A DNA stretch of 64,000 nt from a virus (Duplodnaviria; Heunggongvirae; Uroviricota; Caudoviricetes), in IMG/VR virus record IMGVR_UViG_3300037454_000941, positions 138,063 to 202,062 of that record, one strand, 5' to 3'. This document shows, piece after piece, positions 3,792 to 45,710 of this stretch. The translations under genes were made by a program, and so were the position numbers. Position 1 is the first letter of the stretch, and every line of letters starts with the position of its first letter. The notes under the pieces were generated by a model. That model searched no databases. It was not told the DNA's origin and saw only the letters and a list, made by a program, of their open reading frames with translations.

Positions 3792-5183
3792 ATGGAACAG
3801 CATTGTGGAAGAAAGATATGCTTGAAACCGAGCAAGGCACAGGTACGGACGATGTACCGTATGTGTGCCGTTTCCCGCCGTGCCTACAACTGGAAACTGG
3901 CAGAACAGAACAAGGCTTACGAGGAGGCCAAGGCCAATACGCCGGAAGGCGAGAAGGTCAAGTGTACCCTTGGGACGCCGAGGGACTGGCATAAGGAATG
4001 GTGCATCTACAAGAAGCTCCCCGACAACAAGTGGATGACGGAAGTCTCCAAGTTCTGTGGCCAGGAGGCTTTAATCGACCTAGGCTCCGCATGGAAGCGG
4101 TTCTTCAAGGGTTTAGCCAAGCATCCCCGCTTCCACCGCTACAATCAGGACAATTCGTTCCGCTGCTCCGGTGGCGTATTCATTGGTCGAGATTTCGTCC
4201 AGCTTCCTACCCTCGGCAGAGTTAAGCTCCGTGAGAAGGACTATATAAAGATACCGAAGGATTCCGAGAAGATACCGCTTGCAATGGCGACGGTATCGGT
4301 CGATGCTGCTGGCAAGTGGTATGTATCATTCGCCTATGTAGCCGACATCGTTCCAGTCCACGAATCCATATCCTCGTTCGAGGAACAGGACATCGTAGGT
4401 GTCGATTTCGGTGTCAAGTACTTGGCAATCACGAGCGACGGTATCGTTTATGCCAATCCGAAAGCCTACCGTCATGCAAAGGCTAGGCTCCGCCGTGCCC
4501 AACGGGCACTATCCCGCAAGAAGAAACACTCCAAGAATAGGGAGCGCTGCCGTAGGCTGTTGGCTAGAATACATCGACGTATAACCAATATCCGTGTCAA
4601 TGCGGCACACCAGCTTACAGCTGACCTTACGAAGCACACCAAGCCGAAGGCCATCGTCCTAGAGGACTTGAAGCCGAAGAACATGTCCAAGAACCATAAA
4701 TTGGCTTCGGCTATCCTCGATGCCAACTTCGGTAGGATGAGACAGTTCCTCGAATACAAGTGTGCTTGGCTAGGCATCTTACTGTTCTTCGCACCGCAGT
4801 TCTATGCATCATCAAGATATTGCTCCCACTGCGGGCAATACTACAACACGGATTTGACCCTGGATGACAGGGAATGGGTATGCCCGGTATGTGGGCATAA
4901 GCATGATAGAGATTACAATGCAGCCAGGAACCTACAGTTCTATGGCCTGTGGCTACTAAACCTAGTAGTCCCGACTAATGACAATGCGGTGAGATACACC
5001 GTAAGTGGAGAAGTTCCCACGAATGCTTGCCCCCACGGCAACGCCCAGTGCGTTACCTATCGGGAAGGTATGGTTTACACCAACCCCAGAGACATGAGGT
5101 TGCAGTTCTTTGAAACACAAGAGCAGTGCATGGCGATGAAGCAAGAAATCACCAATACATATTTAATTGGTAAAAATGTGTAG
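3792..5183 (+). CDS. tnpB: IS605/IS1341-type transposase accessory protein TnpB (RuvC-like nuclease with Zn finger)
   Basis: 463 aa; OrfB/TnpB architecture: central GVDFGVKYLAITSDG RuvC motif, C-terminal CxxC...CxxC zinc finger, NAARN. Confidence 0.9.
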   Translation: MEQHCGRKICLKPSKAQVRTMYRMCAVSRRAYNWKLAEQNKAYEEAKANTPEGEKVKCTLGTPRDWHKEWCIYKKLPDNKWMTEVSKFCGQEALIDLGSAWKRFFKGLAKHPRFHRYNQDNSFRCSGGVFIGRDFVQLPTLGRVKLREKDYIKIPKDSEKIPLAMATVSVDAAGKWYVSFAYVADIVPVHESISSFEEQDIVGVDFGVKYLAITSDGIVYANPKAYRHAKARLRRAQRALSRKKKHSKNRERCRRLLARIHRRITNIRVNAAHQLTADLTKHTKPKAIVLEDLKPKNMSKNHKLASAILDANFGRMRQFLEYKCAWLGILLFFAPQFYASSRYCSHCGQYYNTDLTLDDREWVCPVCGHKHDRDYNAARNLQFYGLWLLNLVVPTNDNAVRYTVSGEVPTNACPHGNAQCVTYREGMVYTNPRDMRLQFFETQEQCMAMKQEITNTYLIGKNV

Positions 5184-5383
5184 AAATGATTTATCGGATG
5201 CGTTTCATGCCGGAAATTATAAAAACTTAGCAGAATTCGGACAAAATGTGAATCGAAGCAAAACATCTATATATCAATTGTTTAATTCATATATACCAGC
5301 ATTTAGTAGTGACCGAACTCATAGGCGCAGGCGTTTTTGTTCTAATATTGATTTGGTTGGTCAGTATGAATAATTAAATTTTT

Positions 5384-5455
5384 GCCCGTATAGCTTAACT
5401 GGAAGAGCCTCGGACTACGAATCCGACTATCGAGATTCGACTTCTCGTACGGGTA
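5384..5455 (+). tRNA. tRNA-Arg (anticodon ACG)
   Basis: hand-folded cloverleaf; acceptor GCCCGTA/TACGGGT, anticodon loop CTACGAA; no encoded CCA. Confidence 0.65.
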
Positions 5456-5463
5456 TTACTTTT

Positions 5464-5537
5464 GGCCTTGTCGACCACGTTGGCTAAGTCACCACCCTTT
5501 CACGGTGGAGAATCCGGATCGACACCGGACAAGGCTA
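5464..5537 (+). tRNA. tRNA-Glu (TTC)
   Basis: acceptor GGCCTTG/CAAGGCT, AC stem CCACC/GGTGG loop CTTTCAC, unusual T-loop ATCGACA. Confidence 0.6.
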
Positions 5538-5541
5538 CTAT

Positions 5542-5615
5542 ATTCGTCTAGCTCAATTGGTTAGAGTACCTGGCTGATATCCAGGCGGTTTCAAGTTCAA
5601 GTCTTGAGGCGAATA
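5542..5615 (+). tRNA. tRNA-Ile (GAT)
   Basis: AC stem CCTGG/CCAGG loop CTGATAT; T-arm TTGAGG... TTCAAGT. Confidence 0.65.
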
Positions 5616-5624
5616 CTAAATTAT

Positions 5625-5700
5625 GCACCATTAGCTCAGTTGGTTCTAGAGCAGTTGCCTCTTAAGCATCGGGTCCAAAGTTCAAGTCTTTGATGGTGCA
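5625..5700 (+). tRNA. tRNA-Lys (CTT)
   Basis: acceptor GCACCAT/ATGGTGC, AC loop CTCTTAA (one stem mismatch). Confidence 0.55.
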
Positions 5701-5712
5701 CTAACAAATTAT

Positions 5713-5788
5713 TGCGGTGTAGCTCAGTCCGGTTCAGAGCAGCGGAATCATAATCCGTTGGTCGAAGGTTCAAATCCTTCTTCCGCAA
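5713..5788 (+). tRNA. tRNA-Met/Ile2 (CAT)
   Basis: AC stem GCGGA/TCCGT loop ATCATAA; T-loop TTCAAAT. Confidence 0.6.
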
Positions 5789-5795
5789 CTATTGT

Positions 5796-5869
5796 GGGGC
5801 CATCGTCTAGTTGGCTAGGACACCAGCCTGTCACGCTGGAAATCACGGGTTCGAACCCCGTTGGTCCCG
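5796..5869 (+). tRNA. tRNA-Asp (GTC)
   Basis: acceptor GGGGCCA/TGGTCCC, AC loop CTGTCAC, T-loop TTCGAAC. Confidence 0.65.
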
Positions 5870-5873
5870 TTAC

Positions 5874-5946
5874 ACTCGGTTAGCTCAGTAGGGAGAGCGC
5901 CTGTTTTACACACAGATTGTCGGCAGTTCGATCCTGTCATCGAGTA
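5874..5946 (+). tRNA. tRNA-Val (TAC)
   Basis: AC loop TTTACAC, T-loop TTCGATC. Confidence 0.6.
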
Positions 5947-5950
5947 CTAT

Positions 5951-6022
5951 AGGGATTTAGGACAGTGGCTAGTCTAGCGCTCTCCAAAAGCGTCTACGGG
6001 AGTTCGAATCTCTCAGTCCCTG
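5951..6022 (+). tRNA. tRNA-Trp (CCA)
   Basis: acceptor AGGGATT/AGTCCCT, AC stem GCGCT/AGCGT loop CTCCAAA, T-loop TTCGAAT. Confidence 0.65.
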
Positions 6023-6029
6023 CTATCTT

Positions 6030-6106
6030 ATTCCACGGTCGGCAAGTGGTATGCCAGCGTGCTGTTAACGCGCCAGATTTTCGGTGGTTCGAGTCCCGGC
6101 AGAGCT
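6030..6106 (+). tRNA. tRNA-like, possibly Asn (GTT), irregular T-arm
   Basis: D-arm GGCA-AGTGGTA-TGCC, AC stem GCGTG/CGCGC loop CTGTTAA, GGTTCGAGTCC present but acceptor/T-stem pairing not resolved. Confidence 0.35.
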
Positions 6107-6113
6107 ACTAAGT

Positions 6114-6201
6114 AACGAGAACGAGATTGCGAGAAACCCGATGGTGACTCAGTTAGTGAGTATCTTGGCGGTTCTAAACCGCCCGCCATCTCGCTCTCGT
6201 T
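6114..6201. ncRNA. atypical cloverleaf-like element (three hairpins inside a 14-bp stem), not a canonical tRNA
   Basis: AACGAGAACGAGAT...ATCTCGCTCTCGTT long stem enclosing hairpins ACTCA-GTTAG-TGAGT and GGCGG-TTCTAAA-CCGCC; no T-arm on either strand. Confidence 0.4.
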
Positions 6202-6209
6202 ACAACATC

Positions 6210-6283
6210 CCCGCAGTAGTGTTAATTGGTTAGCACGCATGCTTGTGGCGCATGAAGTTCGGGTTCGAATCTCGGCTATGGGA
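6210..6283 (+). tRNA. tRNA-His (GTG)
   Basis: AC stem CATGC/GCATG loop TTGTGGC, T-loop TTCGAAT. Confidence 0.55.
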
Positions 6284-6305
6284 CTAACGAAGATAAATAA
6301 ATATG

Positions 6306-6422
6306 GGCTTCAAAGACAGTCGGGTTCTGTGTGACAAGAGACTGAATTTCTCAGCAAGTCTTCAACTGAGTCGATACTACTGAGACTCAAGCGCACGGGT
6401 CTGGTTCGAATCCAGGGAGGTC
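6306..6422 (+). tRNA. tRNA-like, over-long (about 117 nt), possibly interrupted
   Basis: canonical 3' half (TCTGG-TTCGAAT-CCAGG, acceptor GAGGTCC) but the only complementary 5' acceptor (GGGCTTC) is 117 nt upstream; internal hairpins with 11-nt loops. Confidence 0.3.
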
Positions 6423-6435
6423 CACTACTTTTTAA

Positions 6436-6509
6436 TCCACTTCAGTTCAATTGGTAGAACACACGCCTGTTAAGCGTTGAGGTTCTTGGTCCGAATCCAA
6501 GAGGTGGAG
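6436..6509 (+). tRNA. tRNA-Asn (GTT)
   Basis: acceptor TCCACTT/AGGTGGA, AC loop CTGTTAA, T-loop TCCGAAT. Confidence 0.6.
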
Positions 6510-6519
6510 CTATTTTTAT

Positions 6520-6603
6520 GCCGGTGCGCCGACGATGGCGAGTCGGGGGAGACTGTAAATCTCCTGCCTTCGGGCTTAGGGCGTTCGAATCGCTCCACCG
6601 GCA
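6520..6603 (+). tRNA. tRNA-Tyr (GTA), class II
   Basis: acceptor GCCGGTG/CACCGGC, AC stem GGAGA/TCTCC loop CTGTAAA, long variable arm, T-loop TTCGAAT. Confidence 0.7.
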
Positions 6604-6613
6604 CTAAAATTAT

Positions 6614-6686
6614 TCCACCTTAGCTCAGTAGGTAGAGCGGGCGACTGTTAATCGCCTGGTCCCACGTTCGAGTCGTGGAGGTGGAG
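6614..6686 (+). tRNA. tRNA-Asn (GTT), paralog of the gene at 6436
   Basis: acceptor TCCACCT/AGGTGGA, AC stem GGCGA/TCGCC loop CTGTTAA, T-loop TTCGAGT. Confidence 0.65.
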
Positions 6687-6693
6687 CTAATAT

Positions 6694-6769
6694 TGCCGAT
6701 TAGCCAAGCGGTAAGGCGCCGCGCTCTGAACGCGGGATTCTTTCGGTGGTTCGATCCCATCATCGGCAA
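6694..6769 (+). tRNA. tRNA-Gln (CTG)
   Basis: acceptor TGCCGAT/ATCGGCA, AC stem CCGCG/CGCGG loop CTCTGAA. Confidence 0.65.
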
Positions 6770-6779
6770 CTATTTATAT

Positions 6780-6850
6780 GCACCTATGTTGTAGTGGTAG
6801 CAAAACGCATTGCCTGTGCGTGAGCTCCGGTTCGAATCCGGATAGGTGCT
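6780..6850 (+). tRNA. tRNA-Gly (GCC)
   Basis: acceptor GCACCTA/TAGGTGC, AC stem ACGCA/TGCGT loop TTGCCTG, T-loop TTCGAAT. Confidence 0.6.
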
Positions 6851-6854
6851 CTAT

Positions 6855-6942
6855 CTCGATGTGATGGAACTGGTAGACATAACAGGTTGAGAGCCTGTGG
6901 CATATACAAACGTGCATGGCAGTCCGACTCTGCCCATCGAGA
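6855..6942 (+). tRNA. tRNA-Leu (GAG), class II
   Basis: acceptor CTCGATG/CATCGAG, AC stem ACAGG/CCTGT loop TTGAGAG, long variable arm. Confidence 0.65.
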
Positions 6943-6954
6943 CTAAACAACTTG

Positions 6955-7042
6955 CTCCCCGTGATGGAATGGGCATACATATGGGACTTAAAATCCCACG
7001 CGAAGAATAAATCGCATACCGGTTCGATGCCGGTCGGGGAGA
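6955..7042 (+). tRNA. tRNA-Leu (TAA), class II
   Basis: acceptor CTCCCCG/CGGGGAG, AC stem TGGGA/TCCCA loop CTTAAAA, T-arm ACCGG-TTCGATG-CCGGT. Confidence 0.65.
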
Positions 7043-7120
7043 CTATAGGAGAATCGAACATGAAGAAACTTAAATTGAAACGATTATAAAGGTGGCAGCT
7101 GCCTATCAGCTGTGATTTAT

Positions 7121-7213
7121 GCGGGTATAACTCAGCTGGTAGTGCGTTTTACGCCAAGAGTACGCGACTTTTAATCGCGGAGTCGGAATTGGGTTCGAAT
7201 CCCCCTACCCGCA
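7121..7213 (+). tRNA. tRNA-Lys (TTT) with about 15-nt insertion in the D-loop
   Basis: acceptor GCGGGTA/TACCCGC, AC stem CGCGA/TCGCG loop CTTTTAA; D-region carries extra TGCGTTTTACGCCAA. Confidence 0.5.
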
Positions 7214-7217
7214 CTAT

Positions 7218-7288
7218 GCATCATTGAGGTAATGGTAGCCCTGCAGAATTCCACTCTGCCTGTACGAGTTCGAGTCTCGTATGATGCT
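7218..7288 (+). tRNA. tRNA-Gly (TCC)
   Basis: acceptor GCATCAT/ATGATGC, AC stem GCAGA/TCTGC loop ATTCCAC. Confidence 0.6.
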
Positions 7289-7297
7289 CTATTTTAT

Positions 7298-7382
7298 CGC
7301 TCTGTGGCGGAATTGGCGATACGCGGCGCACTCAAAATGCGCTGTCCGAAAGGGCATGTGGGTTCGACTCCCACTTGAGCGA
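7298..7382 (+). tRNA. tRNA-Leu (CAA), class II
   Basis: AC stem GCGCA/TGCGC loop CTCAAAA, variable arm, T-loop TTCGACT. Confidence 0.6.
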
Positions 7383-7391
7383 CTAATCTAT

Positions 7392-7475
7392 CGGCATGTG
7401 GAGTAACTGGTAGCCTCGTCAGATTCAGGTTCTGATGGCCGCAAGGTCGTGAGGGTTCGATTCCCTCTGTGCCGA
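7392..7475 (+). tRNA. tRNA-Leu (CAG), class II
   Basis: acceptor CGGCATG/TGTGCCG, AC stem TCAGA/TCTGA loop TTCAGGT, T-loop TTCGATT. Confidence 0.55.
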
Positions 7476-7481
7476 CTATTT

Positions 7482-7553
7482 GGCCCTTTAGACCAGCGGT
7501 TAAGTCACGGGATTCTCAATCCCGGCACCCGAGTTCGAGCCTCGGAGGGGCTA
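7482..7553 (+). tRNA. tRNA-Glu (CTC)
   Basis: AC stem CGGGA/TCCCG loop TTCTCAA, T-loop TTCGAGC. Confidence 0.6.
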
Positions 7554-7557
7554 CTAT

Positions 7558-7631
7558 TGAGCCTTGGTGCAATTTGGTAGCACGCAAGATTTTGAGTCTT
7601 GATGTTGTTGGTTCGAGTCCAGCCGGCTCAA
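7558..7631 (+). tRNA. tRNA-Gln (TTG)
   Basis: AC stem CAAGA/TCTTG loop TTTTGAG, T-loop TTCGAGT. Confidence 0.6.
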
Positions 7632-7634
7632 TTA

Positions 7635-7724
7635 CCCGAGGTGGTGGAATTGGTAGACACCCCGGACTTAGGATCCGGCGCTGTATTCGCATGCAGCATG
7701 CAGGTTCGACGCCTGTCTTCGGGA
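7635..7724 (+). tRNA. tRNA-Leu (TAG), class II
   Basis: acceptor CCCGAGG/CTTCGGG, AC stem CCGGA/TCCGG loop CTTAGGA, long variable arm. Confidence 0.65.
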
Positions 7725-7739
7725 CTAACGGATTTTTAT

Positions 7740-7812
7740 GCACCCTTAGCCAAGCCTGGTAAGGCATGTGGTTGCAACCCACCGACCGGCGGTTCGAATC
7801 CGTCAGGGTGCT
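7740..7812 (+). tRNA. tRNA-Cys (GCA)
   Basis: acceptor GCACCCT/AGGGTGC, AC stem TGTGG/CCACC loop TTGCAAC, T-loop TTCGAAT. Confidence 0.7.
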
Positions 7813-7821
7813 CTAACTTTT

Positions 7822-7892
7822 ATCGCACTGATGTAATGGTAGCATGACTGTCTCCAAAACAGTTCGTAGGGGTCCGAATCCTTTGTGCGGTG
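7822..7892 (+). tRNA. tRNA-Trp (CCA), second copy
   Basis: AC stem ACTGT/ACAGT loop CTCCAAA, T-loop TCCGAAT. Confidence 0.55.
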
Positions 7893-7907
7893 TTATTTTT
7901 TCTTTAT

Positions 7908-7980
7908 GGGGCTCTGGCAGAGTTGGTCAATGCGCTGGACTGAAAATCCGGAGATTGGGGTTCGAATCCCCGGGGCCCCA
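7908..7980 (+). tRNA. tRNA-Phe (GAA)
   Basis: acceptor GGGGCTC/GGGCCCC, AC stem CTGGA/TCCGG loop CTGAAAA, T-loop TTCGAAT. Confidence 0.6.
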
Positions 7981-7986
7981 CTATTT

Positions 7987-8078
7987 GGAAGTGTCCCATA
8001 ATTGGTTATTGGCCCTCCTTGGAAAGGAGCGTGGTGGGGTAAATTCCCTGCATGGAGGTTCGAGCCCTCCCATTTCCG
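7987..8078 (+). tRNA. tRNA-Ser (GGA), class II
   Basis: acceptor GGAAGTG/CATTTCC, AC loop TTGGAAA, long variable arm, T-loop TTCGAGC. Confidence 0.65.
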
Positions 8079-8085
8079 CGAATTT

Positions 8086-8172
8086 GGAAGCGTAGACCTA
8101 ATTGGTAAGGCCCCCGGCTCGAACCCGGTGGTGAGGAAGTTCCTCATGTAGGTTCAAGTCCTGCCGCTTCCG
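8086..8172 (+). tRNA. tRNA-Ser (CGA), class II
   Basis: acceptor GGAAGCG/CGCTTCC, AC loop CTCGAAC, T-loop TTCAAGT. Confidence 0.65.
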
Positions 8173-8176
8173 CTAT

Positions 8177-8260
8177 GGAAGCGCACGAGATTGGTGACTC
8201 AAGCGGACTTGAAATCCGTGGTTCCGCAAGGGCTTGGGGGTTCGAATCCCTCCGCTTCCG
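8177..8260 (+). tRNA. tRNA-Ser (TGA), class II
   Basis: acceptor GGAAGCG/CGCTTCC, AC stem GCGGA/TCCGT loop CTTGAAA, T-loop TTCGAAT. Confidence 0.65.
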
Positions 8261-8266
8261 CGAAAT

Positions 8267-8339
8267 CAGTGTGTAGCTCAGCCGGTAGAGCGCATGCTTC
8301 GGGAGCATGAGGTCGGTGGATCGTTCCCACCCACGCTGA
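8267..8339 (+). tRNA. tRNA-Pro (CGG)
   Basis: AC stem CATGC/GCATG loop TTCGGGA. Confidence 0.6.
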
Positions 8340-8343
8340 CTAT

Positions 8344-8416
8344 TCCGACATAGCTCAATTGGCAGAGCAGTTCATTAGTAATGAACCGGTTACTCGTTCG
8401 ATGCGAGTTGTCGGAG
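8344..8416 (+). tRNA. tRNA-Thr (AGT)
   Basis: acceptor TCCGACA/TGTCGGA, AC stem GTTCA/TGAAC loop TTAGTAA; A34 anticodon is unusual for bacteria. Confidence 0.55.
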
Positions 8417-8422
8417 CTATTT

Positions 8423-8511
8423 GGAGAGGTAGCCTAATTGGTAAGGCAGGAGAGTGCTAATCTCCCGTGGCCCTCAAAAGCTGCTTGCAGGTTCAATCCC
8501 TGTCCTCTCCG
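8423..8511 (+). tRNA. tRNA-Ser (GCT), class II
   Basis: acceptor GGAGAGG/CCTCTCC, AC stem GGAGA/TCTCC loop GTGCTAA, T-loop TTCAATC. Confidence 0.65.
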
Positions 8512-8518
8512 CTATTAT

Positions 8519-8593
8519 GTTGAAGGTAGCTCAACTGGTAGAGTTCTGGCTTGTGACGCCAGAGGTTGCCGGATCATACCCGGTCCTTCAACC
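8519..8593 (+). tRNA. tRNA-His (GTG)-like, divergent T-loop
   Basis: acceptor GTTGAAG/CTTCAAC, AC stem CTGGC/GCCAG loop TTGTGAC, T-loop ATCATAC. Confidence 0.45.
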
Positions 8594-8640
8594 TATTAGT
8601 CATCCGAAATGTCGCGCTATTACCCAACAAAGGATACATT

Positions 8641-8970
8641 ATGGTGACCGTAGCCCAGATCAACGAATTGCGCAAGGCGACCCAAGTGAGCATGCTTCTT
8701 TGCAAGCAGGCTCTCGAAGCGACCGGCGGCGACTTCGATGCCGCCAGGGAATGGCTCCGAGGCCAGGGTCGCGAGGTCGCCGGGGAGGCCGGCGTGTTCG
8801 GGGTCACCCTGTTCGCTGACGGTGCAACGACCGGTTCCGAGGTGACATCGGGTTACGTGTACAATGACGGCCATACAGCAATCGACATCCGCGGATTCAG
8901 TGGAACCACCCCCACTTGCGTATGGGGCGATTTGAGACACCAAGTAATTTTGCGTCCTGCGAAAAATTGA
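8641..8970 (+). CDS. small protein with elongation factor Ts N-terminal (UBA-like) domain
   Basis: N-terminus VTVAQINELRKATQVSMLLCKQALEATGGDFDAAREWLRGQG matches the EF-Ts N-domain pattern (LRxxTGxxMxxCKKALxExxGDxExAxExLR); start preceded by AAAGGATACATT; embedded in tRNA array. Confidence 0.55.
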   Translation: MVTVAQINELRKATQVSMLLCKQALEATGGDFDAAREWLRGQGREVAGEAGVFGVTLFADGATTGSEVTSGYVYNDGHTAIDIRGFSGTTPTCVWGDLRHQVILRPAKN

Positions 8971-8975
8971 TCTTC

Positions 8976-9051
8976 GCCGGCGTAGCTCAATGGACTTTAG
9001 AGCAAGTGGCTTCTAACCACTAGGTTGCCAGTTCGACTCTGGCCGTCGGTA
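8976..9051 (+). tRNA. tRNA-Arg (TCT)
   Basis: AC stem AGTGG/CCACT loop CTTCTAA, T-loop TTCGACT. Confidence 0.6.
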
Positions 9052-9157: not shown

Positions 9158-9403
9158 ATGACAAAGACCACTGTTGCGTCTGCTCCCAAGATTACCGCCG
9201 CTGCGACCAAGTGCGTGTGTGACAAGGACACCAAGAAGCTCGTCGCCGAAAAGGCAAAGCTCGAAAAGGCCCTCGCCTCCGCCAACGCCAAGGCCGCGAA
9301 GGCTGCCAAGGTTTCCGCTGACAAGCTCGCCAAGGCCCAGGCAATGATCTCCAAGCTGAAGGGCACCGTGGCTGCCCTCAAGGCCGCCAAGAAGGCAAAG
9401 TAA
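9158..9403 (+). CDS. Ala/Lys-rich histone H1-like DNA-binding protein
   Basis: 81 aa, low-complexity AKKAAK repeats; same AAAGGATACA..ATG start context as the 8641 gene. Confidence 0.5.
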   Translation: MTKTTVASAPKITAAATKCVCDKDTKKLVAEKAKLEKALASANAKAAKAAKVSADKLAKAQAMISKLKGTVAALKAAKKAK

Positions 9404-9429
9404 TCCAAATTACTTTTGTTTACATCAGG

Positions 9430-9460
9430 CAACCGGGCGACCGGTTGCCATTGTTGTTTT
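9430..9460 (+). terminator. putative terminator hairpin
   Basis: CAACCGG-GCGA-CCGGTTG followed by a T-rich run. Confidence 0.4.
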
Positions 9461-9462
9461 CG

Positions 9463-9476
9463 GTTGCTATATTTTT
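9463..9476 (+). promoter_or_regulatory. extended -10 promoter motif (GTTGCTATATTTTT)
   Basis: recurrent motif 5 nt upstream of ATG 9481. Confidence 0.5.
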
Positions 9477-9480
9477 AAGC

Positions 9481-10455
9481 ATGAGAAAGATTACCACTAC
9501 ACATACTGGAATTATCGTGTCGGACACCGACATGGAACTGGAATACCTTTACGTGGGCGACTACGGCAAGGAAAACAATATCAAAGCTGATTTCCTGGGT
9601 TACACCAAGAAAATCAAAAAGGTAGAACATCGTCCGGTGGATATTACTGACAAGTTGGTTGTCACGGTATCTACACAGAAGGGATGCTTGGAAAAGTGCA
9701 AGTTTTGTGACTGTCCCAAGTATGGGTTCAAGGGGAACGTGCCGTATTTTCAACTCATGTCCGAGATTATAAATGGAGTGGCATTGTCCAAGATACAGCA
9801 GGGTCAACGTCTTAACGTGCATTTTGCCAGAATGGGTGAACCGACCTGGAATCCTGATGTAATCTCTGTAGCCCGTGACATCGGAACTATAATGAATGGT
9901 GCGCAGAAGTTTATCGAGTATCATCCGGTGGTATCGACCATGCTTCCGAAAAATAACAAGAAGCTTATTCAGTTCCTGCATGCCTGGTGTGAACTAGGAA
10001 ACATGAACTTGTGGAACGGCGGTATCGGCCTCCAATTCTCCATCAACACCCTGGATGAAGCCGACCGTAATGACATGTTCAACAATTGCTCCCTTTCACT
10101 TGCGGAAATTTCAGAAATCGGGAAGCAGCTCCCGATGCCGACGGGACGAAAGTATACACTGAACTTTGCAGTGACCGGTAAGTGCAATTTGGATCCGGAA
10201 ATAATGGGAAGGTATTTTGACAAGGATAAGTTTCTTGTCAAGATCACACCTATCCATGCGACCGAGGAAGCTATCAAGAACGATTTTGCAACTGAATTTG
10301 ACTTCGATGTGTACGAGAAGTTCGAACGTCCTCTGGTCGAGGCTGGGTGGGACGTAATCGTGTTCATCCCGTCATTTGAAGAGGATTCTGACAGGATTAC
10401 ATGTGGTAACTCGCTGATTGCGCTGGGGGCTGCCGATGAAGGTTCTGCTGGTTAA
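9481..10455 (+). CDS. radical SAM enzyme, RlmN/Cfr-like RNA methyltransferase family
   Basis: STQKGCLEKCKFCDC (compare RlmN SSQVGCALECKFCST), RMGEPTWN, C-terminal ITCGNS resembling the RlmN catalytic Cys region. Confidence 0.7.
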   Translation: MRKITTTHTGIIVSDTDMELEYLYVGDYGKENNIKADFLGYTKKIKKVEHRPVDITDKLVVTVSTQKGCLEKCKFCDCPKYGFKGNVPYFQLMSEIINGVALSKIQQGQRLNVHFARMGEPTWNPDVISVARDIGTIMNGAQKFIEYHPVVSTMLPKNNKKLIQFLHAWCELGNMNLWNGGIGLQFSINTLDEADRNDMFNNCSLSLAEISEIGKQLPMPTGRKYTLNFAVTGKCNLDPEIMGRYFDKDKFLVKITPIHATEEAIKNDFATEFDFDVYEKFERPLVEAGWDVIVFIPSFEEDSDRITCGNSLIALGAADEGSAG

Positions 10456-11071
10456 TGGAAGTCCAAGGCAGCATGGGTGTACCGAGCGTGCGCTCATTGA
10501 AGTGCGTGATGCGCTTTCCGGTCTATGTGATGATACCGAACTGATATGGCTGGGTACTCAGGTTTCCTGCTGTACCAACTGCAGGTGTTGCAAGGGTACA
10601 GATGCAACCCGACGGTGCGTCGAGGGCGGCATAGTGAACAAGTTTCTTGATATGCTACCGGGCACTGATGCGGTGGTGTTCGGTTCACCGGTGTATTACG
10701 GTGGCCTAAGTGGCCAGATGGTTAACTTTCTCACTTGGTGCTTCTATTCGTCCCCGAAATCGTTCGTGGGAAAATATGTGGCGGGTATAACTAGCTCACG
10801 CAGGGCCGGTGGGCCGTCGGCGTTGGCATCTTTCAACCAGTTTTTCCTGATGCATAGCATGGTGGTCGTGGGGAGCCAATATTGGAACGAGGTCCATGGG
10901 GATAACCCGGAAGAACTAAAATATGATGTCGAGGGAATGCAGTCGATGCGCAGGCTGGCATACAATATCCACAATGCTGTCCACGGCACTAATGTGGAGT
11001 TCCCGGAAAAGCATATTCACACCAATTTCATTAGCAGGGAATTTTTAAAATTGCAAGAGGAAGGAAAATGA
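10436..11071 (+). CDS. flavodoxin-like NAD(P)H-dependent FMN reductase / iron-sulfur flavoprotein
   Basis: MKVLLVNGSPRQHGCTERAL N-terminus typical of the NADPH-dependent FMN reductase family; overlaps radical SAM gene end. Confidence 0.7.
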   Translation: MKVLLVNGSPRQHGCTERALIEVRDALSGLCDDTELIWLGTQVSCCTNCRCCKGTDATRRCVEGGIVNKFLDMLPGTDAVVFGSPVYYGGLSGQMVNFLTWCFYSSPKSFVGKYVAGITSSRRAGGPSALASFNQFFLMHSMVVVGSQYWNEVHGDNPEELKYDVEGMQSMRRLAYNIHNAVHGTNVEFPEKHIHTNFISREFLKLQEEGK

Positions 11072-11778
11072 AAATCGACATACTCACTGGAAATATCGGT
11101 TCCGGCAAGAGCACCGTGGCCGAAGAGCTCCGCAATATGGGCATCCCGGTCATCAGTGCGGACTGCATGATGAAGGACATCTACCGCAATGACCCGAATA
11201 TTCGCGGCACAGTGACGGCGATTTGGGGTCCCGAGGCCCTGGATCCGGTCATCGGGCTGGGGGAGAAGGTGCGCAATGCGGCCCTCGATGACCCGTCGGT
11301 CTATGAATATCTCACGCGCATCCTCCATTATCCAATGTATGCGAACCTGTGCCAGATTTTACGTGCGCTGGAGATGCTGAGGCCGAAAGTGACCCATGCG
11401 GTAATCGAGTCGGCCACTATCGCCGAATGGATGTTTGCCTGGATAAACCCGGGCATCAAGGTCGGACACACATTCAGGGTGTCCACTTCTAACAAGGATG
11501 CACGCATTGACCGTGTGGTTGAACGGTACAAGAAGCGATTCAGCCTGCATACTGAACGTACGGGTTTCCCCCAATATCCGGAGGAAGTCTACGAAGGGAA
11601 CCGCAAGGTCCTCGCCAAGTATAGGGAGATGGTCATCCGCACGGACGATCTGCAGAACCATGTCAATGCGAAGTGGGAAGGTGATGACCGTATCGGAACG
11701 GTGCACGATTTCCTGAATGACAGCGAGAATGACCCGCTGAGCATCGCATGCAGCATCCGGGATTGTCTTATCGGCTAG
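11068..11778 (+). CDS. P-loop kinase, dephospho-CoA kinase (CoaE)-like; possible nucleotide kinase
   Basis: MKIDILTGNIGSGKSTVAEEL...VISADCMMKD matches CoaE N-terminal Walker A block. Confidence 0.65.
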   Translation: MKIDILTGNIGSGKSTVAEELRNMGIPVISADCMMKDIYRNDPNIRGTVTAIWGPEALDPVIGLGEKVRNAALDDPSVYEYLTRILHYPMYANLCQILRALEMLRPKVTHAVIESATIAEWMFAWINPGIKVGHTFRVSTSNKDARIDRVVERYKKRFSLHTERTGFPQYPEEVYEGNRKVLAKYREMVIRTDDLQNHVNAKWEGDDRIGTVHDFLNDSENDPLSIACSIRDCLIG

Positions 11779-13012: not shown

Positions 13013-13797
13013 GGCCAACAATGACGAAAAACGGAAAAAGAGCCGAAAAAGCCAAGCTAAGAGATCTATTCGCCCCTCATGAAGTCGATGTATCTGGCTT
13101 CTCGCCGGTGGTACAGGCGCGGTTCGCTGAAGCCATTGAGCGCATCAAGGCGGAAAAAGACAAGATGTACTTCCTGGATGACATGGAACGCGCCATGATA
13201 GGCACCGCAATGGTCCAGTATGTGCCGCCCCGTGAGTCGGGTGCGGACAATGAAAAAACGGAATCGCCCGCGCCAATAACCAAATTGGTGGCCGTGTACG
13301 AAAGGGAACTTGCCATCAAGTGCAAGATGGAGAGCTATGGGTCGGACTGGGCGGACAACATCGGAACATATACCGCCGAAGAAAGGGCTGACGAGGGCTT
13401 TATGCAGGGCGAGCTATATACCCTCGCGTGTGATGATTTTGGTTTCAACACGCTCAGGTCGTTGCCGTATAAGCATGAGTATGCGCCGGTTATCTTCGAG
13501 GCGTTCCATGAAGGCGATGAACGCAGTGACCTTGATCAGTTTGACGAACCTGTCGTGGCTCATGGCGATAGTCGGTTTGACGATGCGCTTATCGGGACCT
13601 ACGAGAATGGAGACGGGGATATTGCCGCCGTATATGACATCGGCCTCCTCGGCGACAGGTTGGACGACCTCCTCAAAACGTTGGGGGATGGCCCGAAGCC
13701 CCTGTTGCTTAATCACTTCAAGGTCGATGACGGGCAGTTCGAGACCTTCCGCAAGACCGTTAACGAAGAAGAAATGGAGAAGCTGATGTATGCCTAG
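13009..13797 (+). CDS. hypothetical protein
   Basis: 262-aa ORF, 4-nt overlap with upstream gene. Confidence 0.6.
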   Translation: MRPTMTKNGKRAEKAKLRDLFAPHEVDVSGFSPVVQARFAEAIERIKAEKDKMYFLDDMERAMIGTAMVQYVPPRESGADNEKTESPAPITKLVAVYERELAIKCKMESYGSDWADNIGTYTAEERADEGFMQGELYTLACDDFGFNTLRSLPYKHEYAPVIFEAFHEGDERSDLDQFDEPVVAHGDSRFDDALIGTYENGDGDIAAVYDIGLLGDRLDDLLKTLGDGPKPLLLNHFKVDDGQFETFRKTVNEEEMEKLMYA

Positions 13798-14413
13798 ATA
13801 TGAGAAGCCCGAGTACGAAGGCGATTCCCGCCCGGAGACACAGAAGCATATCGATACCGTGAATGAAAACGGCAGGAAGTTCTGTGACAAGCTAATGGAA
13901 CGCCTGGGACGCCATGATGCATCCAAGCTGGTTGCGCCCGAGCACAAGTATTTCGACAAGGGCACCCCGGAGCTCGAAAAAAGCACGTATGGGGAAAAGT
14001 CATACGACGATGCCAAGGGCAAAATCAAGGAGGGCCTCAAGCACCATTACGCCAACAACGATCACCATCCGGAGCATTTCGGCGAAGAGGGTATTTCGGG
14101 CATGAACCTGTACCAGCTTGTCGAAATGTGGCTCGACTGGACCGCCGCGGTCAGGCGTCACGCGGACGGGAACATCTTCAATAGCATCATGGTGAACCGG
14201 TTCAAGCGCCCGGAGTTCCATATGGATGACCAGATTTTCAAGATCTTCTTGAATACGGCGACCGAGGATTTTCCCGAGCAGATGGACGGGGCCAACGACG
14301 ATTTCCAGCGGTATCTCATGGAGGAGATGCACAAGAGCGGAACCGGTGACGGCGATGCCGACAAGAGCACGGAGAAGGAAAAATCCGATGAGGAACAGAA
14401 GCCCGAGGAATAG
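13790..14413 (+). CDS. hypothetical protein
   Basis: 207-aa ORF, acidic C-terminus. Confidence 0.6.
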   Translation: MPRYEKPEYEGDSRPETQKHIDTVNENGRKFCDKLMERLGRHDASKLVAPEHKYFDKGTPELEKSTYGEKSYDDAKGKIKEGLKHHYANNDHHPEHFGEEGISGMNLYQLVEMWLDWTAAVRRHADGNIFNSIMVNRFKRPEFHMDDQIFKIFLNTATEDFPEQMDGANDDFQRYLMEEMHKSGTGDGDADKSTEKEKSDEEQKPEE

Positions 14414-16338: not shown

Positions 16339-16977
16339 GTGGATGGAACAATGATTGGAAATGAAGAGCAGCACTATCCGATATTACCCGGAATGGAACT
16401 CCCGCACAATATCAAGGTGGAGGTTCACAAGGGCGAACTCGAACACCTGAGACAGACCATTTCTGACTTCGGGCATATAGTCGAGGAGAACGATCGTCTT
16501 AGGGAAAAGGTCGCCTCCTTGCAACGCCAGATTGCCACGGGCACTCCATGGAACCCGTGGATCCCGGTCGAGGACAACCCGCCGAAGGTTTCTGATGGGT
16601 TGTTCTATATCATGTGGGAGGATGGGTGCTTAGATACCGGTCTCGTGGCACCGAGCACTGGAGAAATTGTTCCACAGACGCCCAGGTCGCTCTATGAACT
16701 GACCGGTGACGAGGGACATTCGATTGAATGGTGGATGCCCGCGCCACCGCGTCCCGAAAAGATATCGCCACCGGCTGAAATGCCTACAAAAACTCCGGAA
16801 AAGGCATATGTGGTTGTCTTGAAGATGATGGACTCATGGTGCCTTGTTGGAAAGAAGGTTTTCACAAAATTCGAGGATGCCGAGAGGTTCCGTTTGCGGG
16901 CACAGGAAAAGACTCAGAAAATACTGGATACGGAAGAGGTCAAGCTCCTGGATAGTTACACCCCGCCACAGAAATGA
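16339..16977 (+). CDS. hypothetical protein
   Basis: 212-aa ORF. Confidence 0.6.
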   Translation: MDGTMIGNEEQHYPILPGMELPHNIKVEVHKGELEHLRQTISDFGHIVEENDRLREKVASLQRQIATGTPWNPWIPVEDNPPKVSDGLFYIMWEDGCLDTGLVAPSTGEIVPQTPRSLYELTGDEGHSIEWWMPAPPRPEKISPPAEMPTKTPEKAYVVVLKMMDSWCLVGKKVFTKFEDAERFRLRAQEKTQKILDTEEVKLLDSYTPPQK

Positions 16978-16983
16978 GCATGC

Positions 16984-17010
16984 AGGTTGCCGCAAGGCAA
17001 CCTTTTTGCT
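16984..17010 (+). terminator. Rho-independent terminator overlapping next promoter
   Basis: GGTTGCC-GCAA-GGCAACC + TTTTT. Confidence 0.55.
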
Positions 17011-17016
17011 ACATTT
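17005..17016 (+). promoter_or_regulatory. extended -10 promoter motif (TTTGCTACATTT)
   Basis: 5 nt upstream of ATG 17022. Confidence 0.55.
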
Positions 17017-17021
17017 GGGAC

Positions 17022-18257
17022 ATGAAGATTGAAGAAAAGTACATTTCCGAGACAGTCAAGAAGGGTATCGGCTTGCTCGCCGAAATCCATAAGCGCGGAC
17101 ACGAGGCATACATTGCCGGTGGCGCCGTGCGCGACCTCGTAATTCGCCAGTTGCACATGGTGCCGGGTTCCGAAAATGAAGTTCCCGTGCATGACGTGGA
17201 CATAGCGACCAACATGCCCATCGAGGACCTGAAACTTGCCTTCCGCTGCGACTCCAATAACGGGGAAGCGCATGGCACGATCCTGGTCCATTATGATGGC
17301 CTGGTGTTCGAGGTGACCCAGTTCCGCGTCGATGGCAACTATTCCGACGGTCGCCACCCGGATTCGGTGAATTTCACCAAGTCCTTCAAGGAAGACTGCG
17401 CCCGGCGTGACTTTACCATTAACGCTATGGGTCTGGACAAGGACCTCAATGTCATCGACTATTTCGGCGGTATCGACGACCTGGTATTCCGTCGTCTCCG
17501 TGCAGTGGGCAACCCGTATGACCGCATGACCGAGGATTCCCTCCGTATCATTCGCGGTATGCGATTTGCCGCCCGTTTCGGTTTCGTGATTGACGACCTT
17601 ACCAAGTTGGCCATGCGCAGCCGCCTGCACCACATCAAGAGCGTGGCGATGGAGCGCATCCATGACGAATTGCACAAGTGTGCCGAGTATGGCGTGCTGC
17701 CTTTCGCGAACATGATTGGGTACCTGTCCGAGTATGGCATCGGAACAATTTTCCAGGATGTCGGCTTCTGCTTTGACCGTCAGCGCATGCTCGTGGAATC
17801 CTTGGTACACGGAAACGTGGATGCCGATACAATCATGTCGGTATTCATCTGCATGCTGCCGAAGAAGAGCATGGAATGGCTCCGCTGCACCCGTAAGGAA
17901 ATCCGCATGGCCGAGCGCATCAGGGATGGTCTTATTGGCATCATGTCCGGGAAGTTCGGTCTTGCCGATGAGCAGTTGCTCTATTCCGTTGAACTGGCCG
18001 CTTCCCCGGAATTCAGGCTCATTACCAACCTGTACCGCGAACTGAACCCGTATGGTACCGCCCTGGGTGATGGTGCGGCGACGATATGCGATGTCATTGC
18101 GCGTTGCAGGAAGGGCGAACCCGAATACGGAAAGCAGGTTGCCGCGGAAGGTATCCAGGAAGGGCCTGAATTTGGCAAGCGCCTGCGGGAAGTCATCCTC
18201 GCCGATTACAAGCGCATCAAGGATGGCTGGGACAAATCATGCAATAGGATGTGGTAA
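17022..18257 (+). CDS. cca: tRNA nucleotidyltransferase (CCA-adding enzyme)
   Basis: GGAVRDLV...DVDIATN head domain, RRDFTINA, DRMTEDSLRIIRGMRFAARFGF motifs of class II CCA enzymes/poly(A) polymerases. Confidence 0.85.
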   Translation: MKIEEKYISETVKKGIGLLAEIHKRGHEAYIAGGAVRDLVIRQLHMVPGSENEVPVHDVDIATNMPIEDLKLAFRCDSNNGEAHGTILVHYDGLVFEVTQFRVDGNYSDGRHPDSVNFTKSFKEDCARRDFTINAMGLDKDLNVIDYFGGIDDLVFRRLRAVGNPYDRMTEDSLRIIRGMRFAARFGFVIDDLTKLAMRSRLHHIKSVAMERIHDELHKCAEYGVLPFANMIGYLSEYGIGTIFQDVGFCFDRQRMLVESLVHGNVDADTIMSVFICMLPKKSMEWLRCTRKEIRMAERIRDGLIGIMSGKFGLADEQLLYSVELAASPEFRLITNLYRELNPYGTALGDGAATICDVIARCRKGEPEYGKQVAAEGIQEGPEFGKRLREVILADYKRIKDGWDKSCNRMW

Positions 18258-18598: not shown

Positions 18599-18613
18599 TT
18601 GCCGAAACGACCG

Positions 18614-20013: not shown

Positions 20014-20255
20014 TTGAATGGATCCAGGATAACAAGTGGCGCATCGTAATCCCGGAAGGGACGATGCACAAGTTCCGCGTTGACAACAAGCCGTATGTTG
20101 TGAACCTCATGTGCAACAGTTTCAATGCGTTCCGCAACTATCTGCAGACAGGACGCCTTGGCTTGTTCGATGGCCTGTCCGCAAAGGATTGGGAAACTGT
20201 AAGGAAGATAGCCATCGGCAGGCGGGACATTCCGTTGAAAGTCAACCTTGCGTAA
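20010..20255 (+). CDS. hypothetical protein
   Basis: 81-aa ORF. Confidence 0.45.
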   Translation: MIEWIQDNKWRIVIPEGTMHKFRVDNKPYVVNLMCNSFNAFRNYLQTGRLGLFDGLSAKDWETVRKIAIGRRDIPLKVNLA

Positions 20256-20290
20256 GATTTAACATAATGCGGTTTCCAAATGACCGCATT

Positions 20291-20303
20291 TTTGCTATAT
20301 TTT
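20291..20303 (+). promoter_or_regulatory. extended -10 promoter motif (TTTGCTATATTTT)
   Basis: 4 nt upstream of ATG 20308. Confidence 0.55.
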
Positions 20304-20307
20304 GAAC

Positions 20308-21654: not shown

Positions 21655-21670
21655 CAAAAAAGGAAACAAT

Positions 21671-24351: not shown

Positions 24352-24633
24352 ATGGAAACGATTTACCTTGACAAGAAACACCGCGCAAAGAAAGATGGGT
24401 TTGTCTGGATTCCCCAGTGGAAGGGCCTGTTCTTCTGGCATCCGTACACCCTGTGGACTGCCGACACGTGGATGGGGGATGTCGTCATGTACAGCAAGAG
24501 GGCGACCCCGCCGTCATTCGACACCGGGGAGAACGCCATCAGGTTCATCGAGCGAGTGCTTGCTACAGGGAAGGACAGGGTTTTCCACCTTGATGATGAG
24601 AACGAATATTTACCTGGATTAAGGAGCTGGTAA
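24352..24633 (+). CDS. hypothetical protein
   Basis: ATG 24352 in-frame with track ORF 24304..24633. Confidence 0.45.
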   Translation: METIYLDKKHRAKKDGFVWIPQWKGLFFWHPYTLWTADTWMGDVVMYSKRATPPSFDTGENAIRFIERVLATGKDRVFHLDDENEYLPGLRSW

Positions 24634-25862
24634 TGAAACTCAAAAAGATTGCAGTATTCGGCGGTGCATTCGACCCGCTGACCGTCGGCCACGAAGCCAT
24701 CATCAATTCCCTTCTCGAACAGTACGAGACGGTACATCTCTATATCACCAACAACGACGAGAAGCACTATTCTGCTTCCTGGGAAGACCGACGTGGCATG
24801 GTCTCCGCCGCTTTCGGAAACGCGGTCGGTCGCACGCTCGAAGTGTTCCCCCAGAACACGCGGACATACGAGCTTCTTCAGTCCGGCTACAAGCCCGAGG
24901 ATATCGACCTTATTCTCGGGTACGACGAAATTGTCGCCCTGACGAACAAGACCTGGAAGAATTCCGATGAACTCCTGGGCACATACACCATCCGCGTGGT
25001 TCCGCGCGATTTCAATATGGTAAGGGAAGGCGAGTTTGCCAAGTTCGGGAATATTACGGGACTGACCCTCTGTGTGCCCGACGTGGCATCCACGGAGGTA
25101 CGCAACAAAATGTACATGAACCCCATGTACAATGGCAGCGACGTGTCCCTGTCGGTCGAGAAATATATCCGTATTAAGGGTCTATATCACCAGGTGCAGC
25201 CGCTCCGCCACTGGTTTGATGAATGGGCCGAACTGGCCAAGTACGAACCGGGCGACTACCCGAAACCATCGGTTACCGTGACCATGGTTGTCATCAACGC
25301 TCTCCGCGATGACCGCCTGGGTCGGCAGGACCAGGTGCTTCTTGTGCGCCGCAAGAAGTTCCCGTTTGCCAACTTCTGGTGTCTTCCGGGCGGGTTCACC
25401 AATCCCCATGAGAGTGTGGAGGAAAGCGCTGCCCGCGAACTGAAGGAGGAGACCGGTATTTCGATTGATGACCGGGCGTTCCACCAGTTGAAGGTGTATC
25501 TCCCGGATGACCCGCGAGCCGATCTCCGATACAGGGCCGAGCTTGAACAGAAGGTTCTTGATGCAAAGCGCCAGAAGCTGTATGACGACATCGCCAATGC
25601 AATTCCCGGATTGATCGATCCTGTCGTCAAGAAGATGAAACAGGACGAAATCGTGGCGGAACAGACCAAAATCGACACCATCCGCAACCACTGGGTGTAC
25701 GACGTGGCCCTCTATGTCAAGGGTTCTCTGTTCCCGCACGTATACGGCGCGGACGATGCGCTTGAAGCCACCTGGGTACCGCTGGAAGATGCCAGGAAGA
25801 CCAAGCTGGCCTTCCACCACAACAAGATTCTCGAAGACTATATCGCGGCTGTAGGGGGGTAG
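24633..25862 (+). CDS. bifunctional nicotinamide-nucleotide adenylyltransferase / Nudix hydrolase (NadM-Nudix-like)
   Basis: N-terminal IAVFGGAFDPLTVGH (GxFxPxHxGH) adenylyltransferase; C-terminal Nudix box LPGGFTNPHESVEESAARELKEETGI. Confidence 0.85.
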   Translation: MKLKKIAVFGGAFDPLTVGHEAIINSLLEQYETVHLYITNNDEKHYSASWEDRRGMVSAAFGNAVGRTLEVFPQNTRTYELLQSGYKPEDIDLILGYDEIVALTNKTWKNSDELLGTYTIRVVPRDFNMVREGEFAKFGNITGLTLCVPDVASTEVRNKMYMNPMYNGSDVSLSVEKYIRIKGLYHQVQPLRHWFDEWAELAKYEPGDYPKPSVTVTMVVINALRDDRLGRQDQVLLVRRKKFPFANFWCLPGGFTNPHESVEESAARELKEETGISIDDRAFHQLKVYLPDDPRADLRYRAELEQKVLDAKRQKLYDDIANAIPGLIDPVVKKMKQDEIVAEQTKIDTIRNHWVYDVALYVKGSLFPHVYGADDALEATWVPLEDARKTKLAFHHNKILEDYIAAVGG

Positions 25863-28695: not shown

Positions 28696-28770
28696 ACATG
28701 TGTATTTGGGGAGTCACGATTAAACCCCAATGCGAACACCCACATTTAAACTCAAATGAGTATAGGACGC

Positions 28771-45460: not shown

Positions 45461-45552
45461 CTGGTAAGCGCCGGGAGCCGTCGGACGGACAACTCGAGTA
45501 AGGTCGCCCGCTCCTCCCGGCGCCGGGACAGTCAGCACATGTCCCACCCCCT

Positions 45553-45624
45553 AGCCCTCGGGTGTGACTGGTAGCATCGCAGACTCCAAATCTGCAGGAT
45601 GGCGTTCGAAGCGTCAGGGGGCTG
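45553..45624 (+). tRNA. tRNA-Trp (CCA)-like, third copy
   Basis: acceptor AGCCCTC/GGGGGCT, AC stem GCAGA/TCTGC loop CTCCAAA, T-loop TTCGAAG. Confidence 0.45.
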
Positions 45625-45628
45625 TTAC

Positions 45629-45701: not shown

Positions 45702-45710
45702 CGAAATTAC

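Follow-up and report, generated by a model that had tools for sequence, protein, structure and literature searches.

An enzyme of the radical S-adenosylmethionine (SAM) type and a flavoprotein of the flavin mononucleotide (FMN) reductase fold are encoded side by side in a 64,000-nucleotide stretch of a tailed-virus genome (Caudoviricetes; IMG/VR record IMGVR_UViG_3300037454_000941, positions 138,063 to 202,062), referred to below as the window. Sequence comparisons identify the pair as a mobile accessory cassette from a large uncharacterized sister family of the methyltransferases RlmN and Cfr. The activity tentatively favored for it, at a confidence that falls short of calling it probable, is radical chemistry of the RlmN type directed at a small N-heteroaromatic metabolite and served by a dedicated reductase. 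Coordinates are window positions unless a related locus is named with them; related loci and proteins carry L- and P-numbers, respectively, and the related viral stretches in IMG/VR amount to 528. The pair and the gene that follows it are:

9481..10455, + strand: radical SAM enzyme of the PHROG 24834 family, 324 aa, a truncated RlmN/Cfr-like core
10436..11071, + strand: flavoprotein of the FMN reductase fold, 211 aa, ATG start, with a 20-nt overlap with the end of the preceding gene
11068..11778, + strand: CoaE-like P-loop kinase, 236 aa, overlapping the stop codon of the flavoprotein gene by 4 nt (ATGA)

All three were found as overlapping plus-strand open reading frames (ORFs), in agreement with the initial annotation of this DNA, and a radical SAM protein identical over its 324 aa is on record (P0001) on a contig of 223,861 bp. 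This contig, the tRNA and tmRNA genes of the window and the related viral stretches make an origin in a large phage credible.

Kinship of the radical SAM protein with RlmN and Cfr

True homology links the radical SAM protein to the catalytic core of RlmN and Cfr, as had been proposed from its GCxxxCKFC block and C-terminal cysteine. The cluster motif reads G68-C69-LEK-C73-KF-C76, and the C-terminal C308 lies in ITCGN. RlmN structures were the sole matches in a PDB sequence search (E 6.5e-5, residues 52-131), and a profile of 22 diverse family members aligned with Escherichia coli RlmN in hhalign at 98.8% probability (E 1e-16), family positions 50-316 corresponding to RlmN 108-366, which delimits a homologous core of ~250 residues. 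This alignment pairs C308 with Cys355, the methyl carrier of RlmN. Motifs common to both groups are S-x-Q-x-G-C-x3-C-x-F-C, MGEPxxN and the C-terminal cysteine of CGQ/CGN; the class A core is retained, with its CxxxCxxC cluster, GEPxxN among further core motifs, and a C-terminal cysteine that is invariant. The only invariant cysteines in the 22-sequence alignment are C69, C73, C76 and C308, the latter within CG[NQ]. The AlphaFold model (predicted local distance difference test, pLDDT, 87.9; predicted template modeling score, pTM, 0.89) has a radical SAM barrel, and its ten best fold matches in the PDB are RlmN structures and the Sphaerobacter methyltransferase 6FZ6 (E ~3e-11, template modeling score ~0.6); the next match, SuiB, is five orders of magnitude weaker.

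Membership in RlmN/Cfr proper, which the initial annotation had assumed, did not hold: by curated family thresholds and defining features, the protein lies outside these families, a placement that the initial annotation had itself named as refuting its reading. On the NCBIfam models it scores 33.2 bits against a cut-off of 290 for RlmN (TIGR00048), and 20.7 against 530 and 17.7 against 550 for Cfr (NF000424 and TIGR04432, respectively), and members of the wider family reach 20-80 bits where the cut-offs are 290-633. In RlmN, the first ~100 residues are known as an accessory domain that contacts RNA. No counterpart of RlmN residues 1-107 was found in the radical SAM family by profile alignment, the NCBIfam matches beginning at model position ~92-98, and the structural model places a predicted small three-stranded beta-sheet (residues 1-36) where RlmN has this domain. 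The resolving Cys118 of RlmN is paired in the profile alignment with a conserved Thr, T62, seven residues before the first cluster cysteine; of 42 diverse members, 41 have a residue other than cysteine in column 62, and the only one with Cys is the homologue of Salmonella phage Arash. Loss of Cys118 leaves RlmN covalently trapped on RNA, and the top structural match, 5HR7, is the C118A variant of RlmN cross-linked to tRNA. The family differs from RlmN/Cfr also in a near-invariant Asp directly after the third cluster cysteine, and in its partners: flavoprotein reductases, isochorismatase-like hydrolases and, as fusions, a nucleosidase and a subunit of a transporter.

The protein matches PHROG 24834, a phage radical SAM family with function unannotated, at 304 bits (E 2.1e-90; residues 16-314 on positions 21-323 of 336). 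The family has thousands of members and is spread over gut phages, bacteria and Asgard archaea. A word-indexed search returned 7,507 proteins at E<=1e-3, and an exhaustive HMMER scan of 1.84 billion representatives gave only 514 clusters at the same threshold, from which we infer that no family as large as that of RlmN exists within it; a viral scan with P0129 as query gave no match. Members further removed match positions ~98-352 of the RlmN model at 45-80 bits, and the family is therefore regarded as a sister group of RlmN/Cfr, not as a chance match to the cluster motif. The protein is likewise placed apart from the SPASM and twitch enzymes. Proteins of the family bear the source-pipeline labels '23S rRNA (adenine2503-C2)-methyltransferase' and 'Fe-S-cluster redox enzyme'.

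In the Arash homologue (gp133; L002, 5887-6816), both catalytic cysteines are preserved (MCVSTQAGC and GGGCGQ) and the score against the RlmN model is 118 bits, which makes this protein a better candidate for a genuine phage RNA methylase. It belongs to a second group of short phage RlmN-like proteins together with BFVD B3FJU2 of Pseudomonas phage 201phi2-1, the latter by fold similarity only.

The flavoprotein and the variable slot before the kinase

The flavoprotein, whose gene is translationally coupled to that of the radical SAM enzyme, matches Pfam FMN_red (PF03358) over residues 1-151, at 88.8 bits against a cut-off of 24, and its PDB matches are of the WrbA type. Like the iron-sulfur flavoproteins (Isf) and the NAD(P)H:FMN reductases (WrbA/SsuE-like), it has the FMN_red fold and an N-terminal GSPR; it also carries a compact four-cysteine motif (C46-x2-C49-x2-C52-x8-C61), which is conserved in the orthologues of L092 and L094. 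It differs from them in scoring below every NCBIfam equivalog cut-off (WrbA, 36 vs 141 bits), and its Fe-S cluster and FMN binding are predicted only. The four-cysteine motif is presumably the [4Fe-4S] motif of Isf proteins. The flavoprotein is likely the dedicated electron donor of the radical SAM enzyme; this role, already put forward in the initial annotation, remains plausible and gains support because the family pairs throughout with flavoprotein reductases that are not orthologous to one another. To our knowledge, an FMN_red-type flavoprotein paired with a radical SAM enzyme has no earlier description.

Two signals precede the pair:

9428..9449, + strand: terminator-like hairpin with a 9 bp stem (7 GC) and a T-rich tail, which closes the upstream 81-aa gene
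9445..9473, + strand: promoter-like site (TTGCCA, 17 nt, TATATT, with TG), 7 nt before the radical SAM ATG, a consensus match only

The hairpin is conserved in related phages, as seen in the alignment with L172 and L174, and the site at 9445-9473 would serve as a promoter common to the three genes. A Shine-Dalgarno sequence was not found before the radical SAM ATG at 9481. An upstream TTG at 9445 was considered as an alternative start of this gene and rejected; the ATG at 9481 is taken as the right start because the TTG sits within the hairpin.

Homologues of the kinase comprise 22 phage-specific proteins, and the genes around them follow a common backbone order: an EF-Ts_N-domain protein, the 81-aa protein, a slot, the kinase, two unknown genes and a DUF5662 protein, continuing further on with DUF1653, a CCA-adding enzyme and PARG, among other genes. 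The slot is empty in phage L172, where the conserved terminator and promoter element stand directly before the kinase ATG; in the related phage L174 (4323-6999) it is filled by three unrelated viperin/MoaA-like radical SAM genes, and in the window by the radical SAM and flavoprotein genes. The pair is therefore an inserted cassette, with a conserved promoter on one side and the backbone kinase on the other. The slot that separates the kinase from the 81-aa gene is a hot spot at which accessory radical SAM genes are found.

The kinase itself resembles CoaE in its P-loop (GNIGSGKST) and N-terminal half, which align with PDB 2IF2 (E 3e-7), and departs from it in a divergent C-terminal half and in belonging to a small phage-specific group. 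It scores 40.4 bits against a cut-off of 27 on Pfam CoaE, on profile positions 5-99 of 180 only, that is, the N-terminal half, and stays under the NCBIfam cut-off for dephospho-CoA kinase (TIGR00152, 36.3 vs 65.55). A functional trio of the two cassette genes and the kinase is at odds with the position of the kinase directly after the same promoter in the cassette-less L172; to judge from this synteny the kinase is a backbone gene outside the cassette, and its co-transcription with the cassette would be incidental.

Partners across the family and the candidate chemistry

Neighborhoods were clustered over 128 + 45 loci of phages and metagenome-assembled genomes (MAGs). A universal neighbor was not found among them, the commonest neighbor families reaching only 10-13 of 128. 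Several lineages nevertheless carry partners suggestive of a metabolic setting. The closest phage relatives, L092-L095 (78-80% identity), have the radical SAM gene followed in turn by FMN_red (the orthologue of the second gene), a PncA-like isochorismatase, two small genes and NAPRTase. A second lineage (L012, L015, L017 and L051) has NAPRTase, PncA-like, radical SAM, NadE, DUF5662 and an NrtR-like Nudix regulator, its NAPRTase being of a different subfamily from that of L092-L095. An isochorismatase gene appears again in an unrelated environmental phage clade (L193).

In 34 of the 39 most distant loci (Asgard archaea, Elusimicrobia, Chloroflexi, Thermotogae and others), the gene directly upstream of the radical SAM gene encodes a thioredoxin reductase (TrxR)-like flavoprotein. 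An isochorismatase-family cysteine hydrolase of ~220 aa lies upstream of the TrxR-like gene in six of eight inspected distant loci and was confirmed in three. The resulting three-gene operon (hydrolase, TrxR-like, radical SAM) occurs across the four groups named, in L053, L066, L067, L075, L088, L089 and others, at ~4350-6950 of each locus, and appears to encode an uncharacterized three-enzyme pathway. A CxxC redox disulfide was not found in the TrxR-like flavoprotein of this distant clade, so the protein is regarded as an electron-transfer protein and not a disulfide reductase. Taken across clades, the recurring module consists of the radical SAM enzyme, a flavoprotein reductase (FMN_red or TrxR-like depending on the clade) and an amidohydrolase.

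Gene fusions add to this picture. Triple fusions of a QueT-type energy-coupling factor (ECF) S-component, the radical SAM enzyme and an MTA/SAH (methylthioadenosine/S-adenosylhomocysteine) nucleosidase were found in P0136, P0139, L044, L045, L047 and L048, with identities to the phage protein of 37-42% for L044-L048 and 36-37% for P0136/P0139. Their nucleosidase domain scores 224 bits against a cut-off of 169, and QueT (PF06177, cut-off 33.7) scores 40-50 bits in P0136 and L045, 37 in P0139 and 30.4, below the cut-off, in P0138. The S-component is joined to the radical SAM domain without the nucleosidase in P0138 and in P0161, the latter with weak, non-specific S-component matches only. Further fusions combine radical SAM with isochorismatase (P0225, P0256) or a TrxR-like flavoprotein with radical SAM (P0250). 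A homologue search with the QueT domain alone gave two matches only, and the bacterial surroundings of the fusion genes are incoherent (amidohydrolases, MatE, FAD proteins). MTA/SAH nucleosidase degrades SAH and 5'-deoxyadenosine, the two by-products of class A methylation. The fusions with QueT, nucleosidase and isochorismatase and the hydrolase/TrxR-like unit are taken as pointers to a small-molecule substrate. The niacin/NAD (nicotinamide adenine dinucleotide) network is inferred to be its best-supported source, through the PncA-like, NAPRTase, NadE and NrtR contexts. Two further genes of the window bear on these partners:

24633..25862, + strand: NadD-like nucleotide adenylyltransferase with a fused Nudix domain (NatV/NadM-Nudix type), a phage-encoded NAD-salvage enzyme
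13790..14413, + strand: DUF5662 protein, a backbone gene here, which adjoins the radical SAM gene in several unrelated lineages (11 of 128 loci)

The DUF5662 protein is a possible partner of the radical SAM enzyme; a PDB sequence search with it gave no match. Most members of an 11-locus phage group have an SPFH/Band_7 gene directly downstream of the radical SAM gene (for instance L127, 6990-7868), and a Band_7 gene is also present within positions 1-39 kb of the window.

In the mechanism that we tentatively favor, a first SAM would methylate Cys308 of the radical SAM enzyme and a second SAM would generate a thiomethylene radical at this residue. The radical would add to a carbon in the electron-poor ring of some small metabolite or nucleotide of N-heteroaromatic character, the outcome being most likely C-methylation. 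The flavoprotein would reduce the radical SAM cluster and may also provide the two electrons for product release, the task of Cys118 in RlmN. The substrate would come most likely from the niacin/NAD salvage network, with 7-deazapurines as the alternative.

A number of observations weigh against this proposal. No member of the family has been characterized, and product release without a resolving cysteine is hypothetical. The clues to the substrate disagree, the fusions pointing to queuosine precursors through QueT and the neighborhoods to niacin. Nicotinamidase and NAPRTase were not found in the window; about 100 of the 128 phage loci and 44 of the 45 in a second clade are without NAD or hydrolase partners, so that the NAD/hydrolase link comes from few lineages. 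The assignment of the flavoprotein to the Isf-type [4Fe-4S] proteins is a probable one, drawn from its cysteine motif, and part of the wider phage group, of which Arash is an example, may still methylate RNA. Nothing relevant turned up in the literature searched, either on RlmN-like enzymes of phages or on NAD salvage by a radical SAM enzyme.

Of the other explanations, the one closest to the initial annotation is a phage RNA methyltransferase that C-methylates adenine at A37 of tRNA or A2503 of 23S rRNA, perhaps tuning or protecting the phage tRNAs, with Cfr-like resistance as a consequence. The RlmN-homologous core with its methyl-carrier cysteine agrees with it, as do the location of the gene, 430 bp downstream of an array of 33 tRNAs and in a region with many tRNA-related genes (CCA-adding enzyme, PNKP-type phosphatase, Pth2, tmRNA), tRNAs near some MAG loci, and the two cysteines of the Arash homologue. 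Yet the N-terminal ~100 residues of RlmN are missing, the modeled beta-sheet standing in their stead, Thr occupies the position whose substitution traps RlmN on tRNA in 5HR7, the curated RlmN/Cfr cut-offs are far from reached, and fusions with a membrane transporter subunit and with amidohydrolases are ill-suited to an RNA substrate. The tie to the tRNA arrays drawn at first is not supported: of 60 related phage loci, only two have any tRNA within 6 kb, tRNA genes are not partners of the radical SAM family, and the adjacency of the arrays is judged incidental. Methylation of rRNA or tRNA is consequently held to be unlikely, and Cfr-type antibiotic resistance, also raised in the initial annotation, is likewise unlikely and not expected here. 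Of similarly low probability is a non-methylase that uses the RlmN scaffold for ring cleavage or a lyase reaction on a heterocyclic amide, its product being hydrolyzed by the isochorismatase-like partner, as an anaerobic counterpart of Rut-like flavin pathways. This would accommodate the three-gene unit that recurs among Asgard archaea and anaerobic bacteria, in which the radical SAM enzyme stands with an NAD(P)H flavoprotein and a RutB/BiuH/YcaC-like cysteine hydrolase, and the absence of the resolving cysteine needed in the methyl-transfer cycle of RlmN. But the invariant C308 in CG[NQ] sits exactly at the methyl-carrier position, and the fusion with MTA/SAH nucleosidase suits an enzyme that makes SAH and 5'-deoxyadenosine, as class A methylases do.

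Salvage or modification of 7-deazapurines appears somewhat less likely still. The enzyme would act on imported preQ0, preQ1 or queuine in a role like that of QueL, feeding Q34 of tRNAs with GUN anticodons or 7-deazaguanine DNA. QueT is fused to the radical SAM domain, mostly with a C-terminal nucleosidase (P0138 lacks it), and the phage His, Asn, Asp and Tyr tRNAs carry GUN anticodons. The arrangement resembles the QueK-QrtT-QueL operon of Clostridioides difficile (bioRxiv 10.1101/2023.12.05.570228; PMC11130926), in that a radical SAM enzyme is tied to a queuosine-precursor ECF S-component and a nucleosidase, here as domain fusions in bacterial relatives. At the level of InterPro labels, to which the comparison extends, the two differ: QueL (CD1684, Q186P0) is catalogued under IPR006638, an Elp3/MiaB-type and not an RlmN/Cfr signature, the transporter is entered as QrtT (IPR024529) and not QueT, and the nucleosidase QueK as a member of the IunH family (IPR023186) and not MTAN. 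The MTA/SAH nucleosidase of the fusions, at 224 bits, fits equally the removal of SAH and 5'-deoxyadenosine. A preQ1 riboswitch was not found upstream of the fusion genes or NAD-type operons, where only tRNAs were found, and TGT, DpdA and QueC/D/E/F were not found among 58 scanned ORFs of the window. The identity with QueL suspected from the QueT fusions is judged unlikely on the catalogued signature, the riboswitch search and the scanned ORFs. The least probable of these explanations, modification of deoxynucleotides or DNA within phage nucleotide metabolism, draws on the gene order of L006-L008 (DUF5662, radical SAM, ThyX, guanylate kinase, NrdD, NrdG, dUTPase), a ThyX homologue near the radical SAM gene in L176 and DNA methylases adjoining it in several loci; such contexts are confined to one or two lineages, a DNA-binding or base-flipping domain is not detectable, and the transporter and amidohydrolase fusions argue instead for a free metabolite.

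Wider window and significance

The window contains 53 tRNA genes, all on the + strand, in 5383-9051, 45552-46630 and 51468-57074, with arrays of 33 and 13. With a tmRNA at 52030-52388 (tag ANDAFACRMAA) they compose an unusually complete phage translation toolkit. The backbone genes before the slot include an ORF (8566-8970) with an EF-Ts N-terminal (UBA-like) domain at 8641-8970 (Pfam EF-Ts_N, E 1.2e-5) and little else; an EF-Ts_N-domain protein holds the same position in the related phages L172, L174 and L009. It is followed at 9158-9403 by the 81-aa protein, which is basic, Lys/Ala-rich and 83% identical in L174, with a strong terminator hairpin after its gene; it may bind nucleic acid and be abundant.

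Also detected in the region were NIF3, a CCA-adding enzyme (PolyA_pol head domain), the peptidyl-tRNA hydrolase Pth2, PARG of the microbial type and a HAD phosphatase of the PNKP type, positions for this set being 16974-18257, 18599-19486, 28756-29235 and one ORF in 39347-63686; only some of these Pfam matches were mapped to specific ORFs, by motif or synteny. The set suggests a tRNA-repair and ADP-ribose theme. On the - strand, a serine resolvase and TnpB/OrfB_IS605 at 20242-22309 look like an IS607-type insertion, and a second, weaker TnpB-like match lies further downstream in the 39-64 kb half.

A more specific, rather improbable view of the cassette would make it a phage counter-defense or auxiliary-metabolism module, in which a cysteine-poor class A enzyme, recycled by its own iron-sulfur flavoprotein, would C-methylate nicotinamide, nicotinate or an adenine nucleotide of the NAD pathway, or alter it by other radical chemistry. 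If true, the module could form or restore a precursor or analogue of NAD while bacterial immunity depletes NAD+; RlmN-type chemistry would thereby gain its first small-molecule substrate, and product release without a resolving cysteine would be new.

For the family as a whole, the pipeline label '23S rRNA (adenine2503-C2)-methyltransferase' is probably wrong and could yield false calls of resistance genes. As far as we know, RNA is the only described target of the chemistry of RlmN and Cfr, in which a methyl-cysteine is formed, a radical adds to an electron-poor carbon of a heteroaromatic ring and a second cysteine brings about resolution. Identification of the substrate would carry the radical chemistry of class A SAM enzymes over to metabolites, and could reveal a new step of niacin/NAD or 7-deazapurine salvage carried by phages as a mobile cassette.

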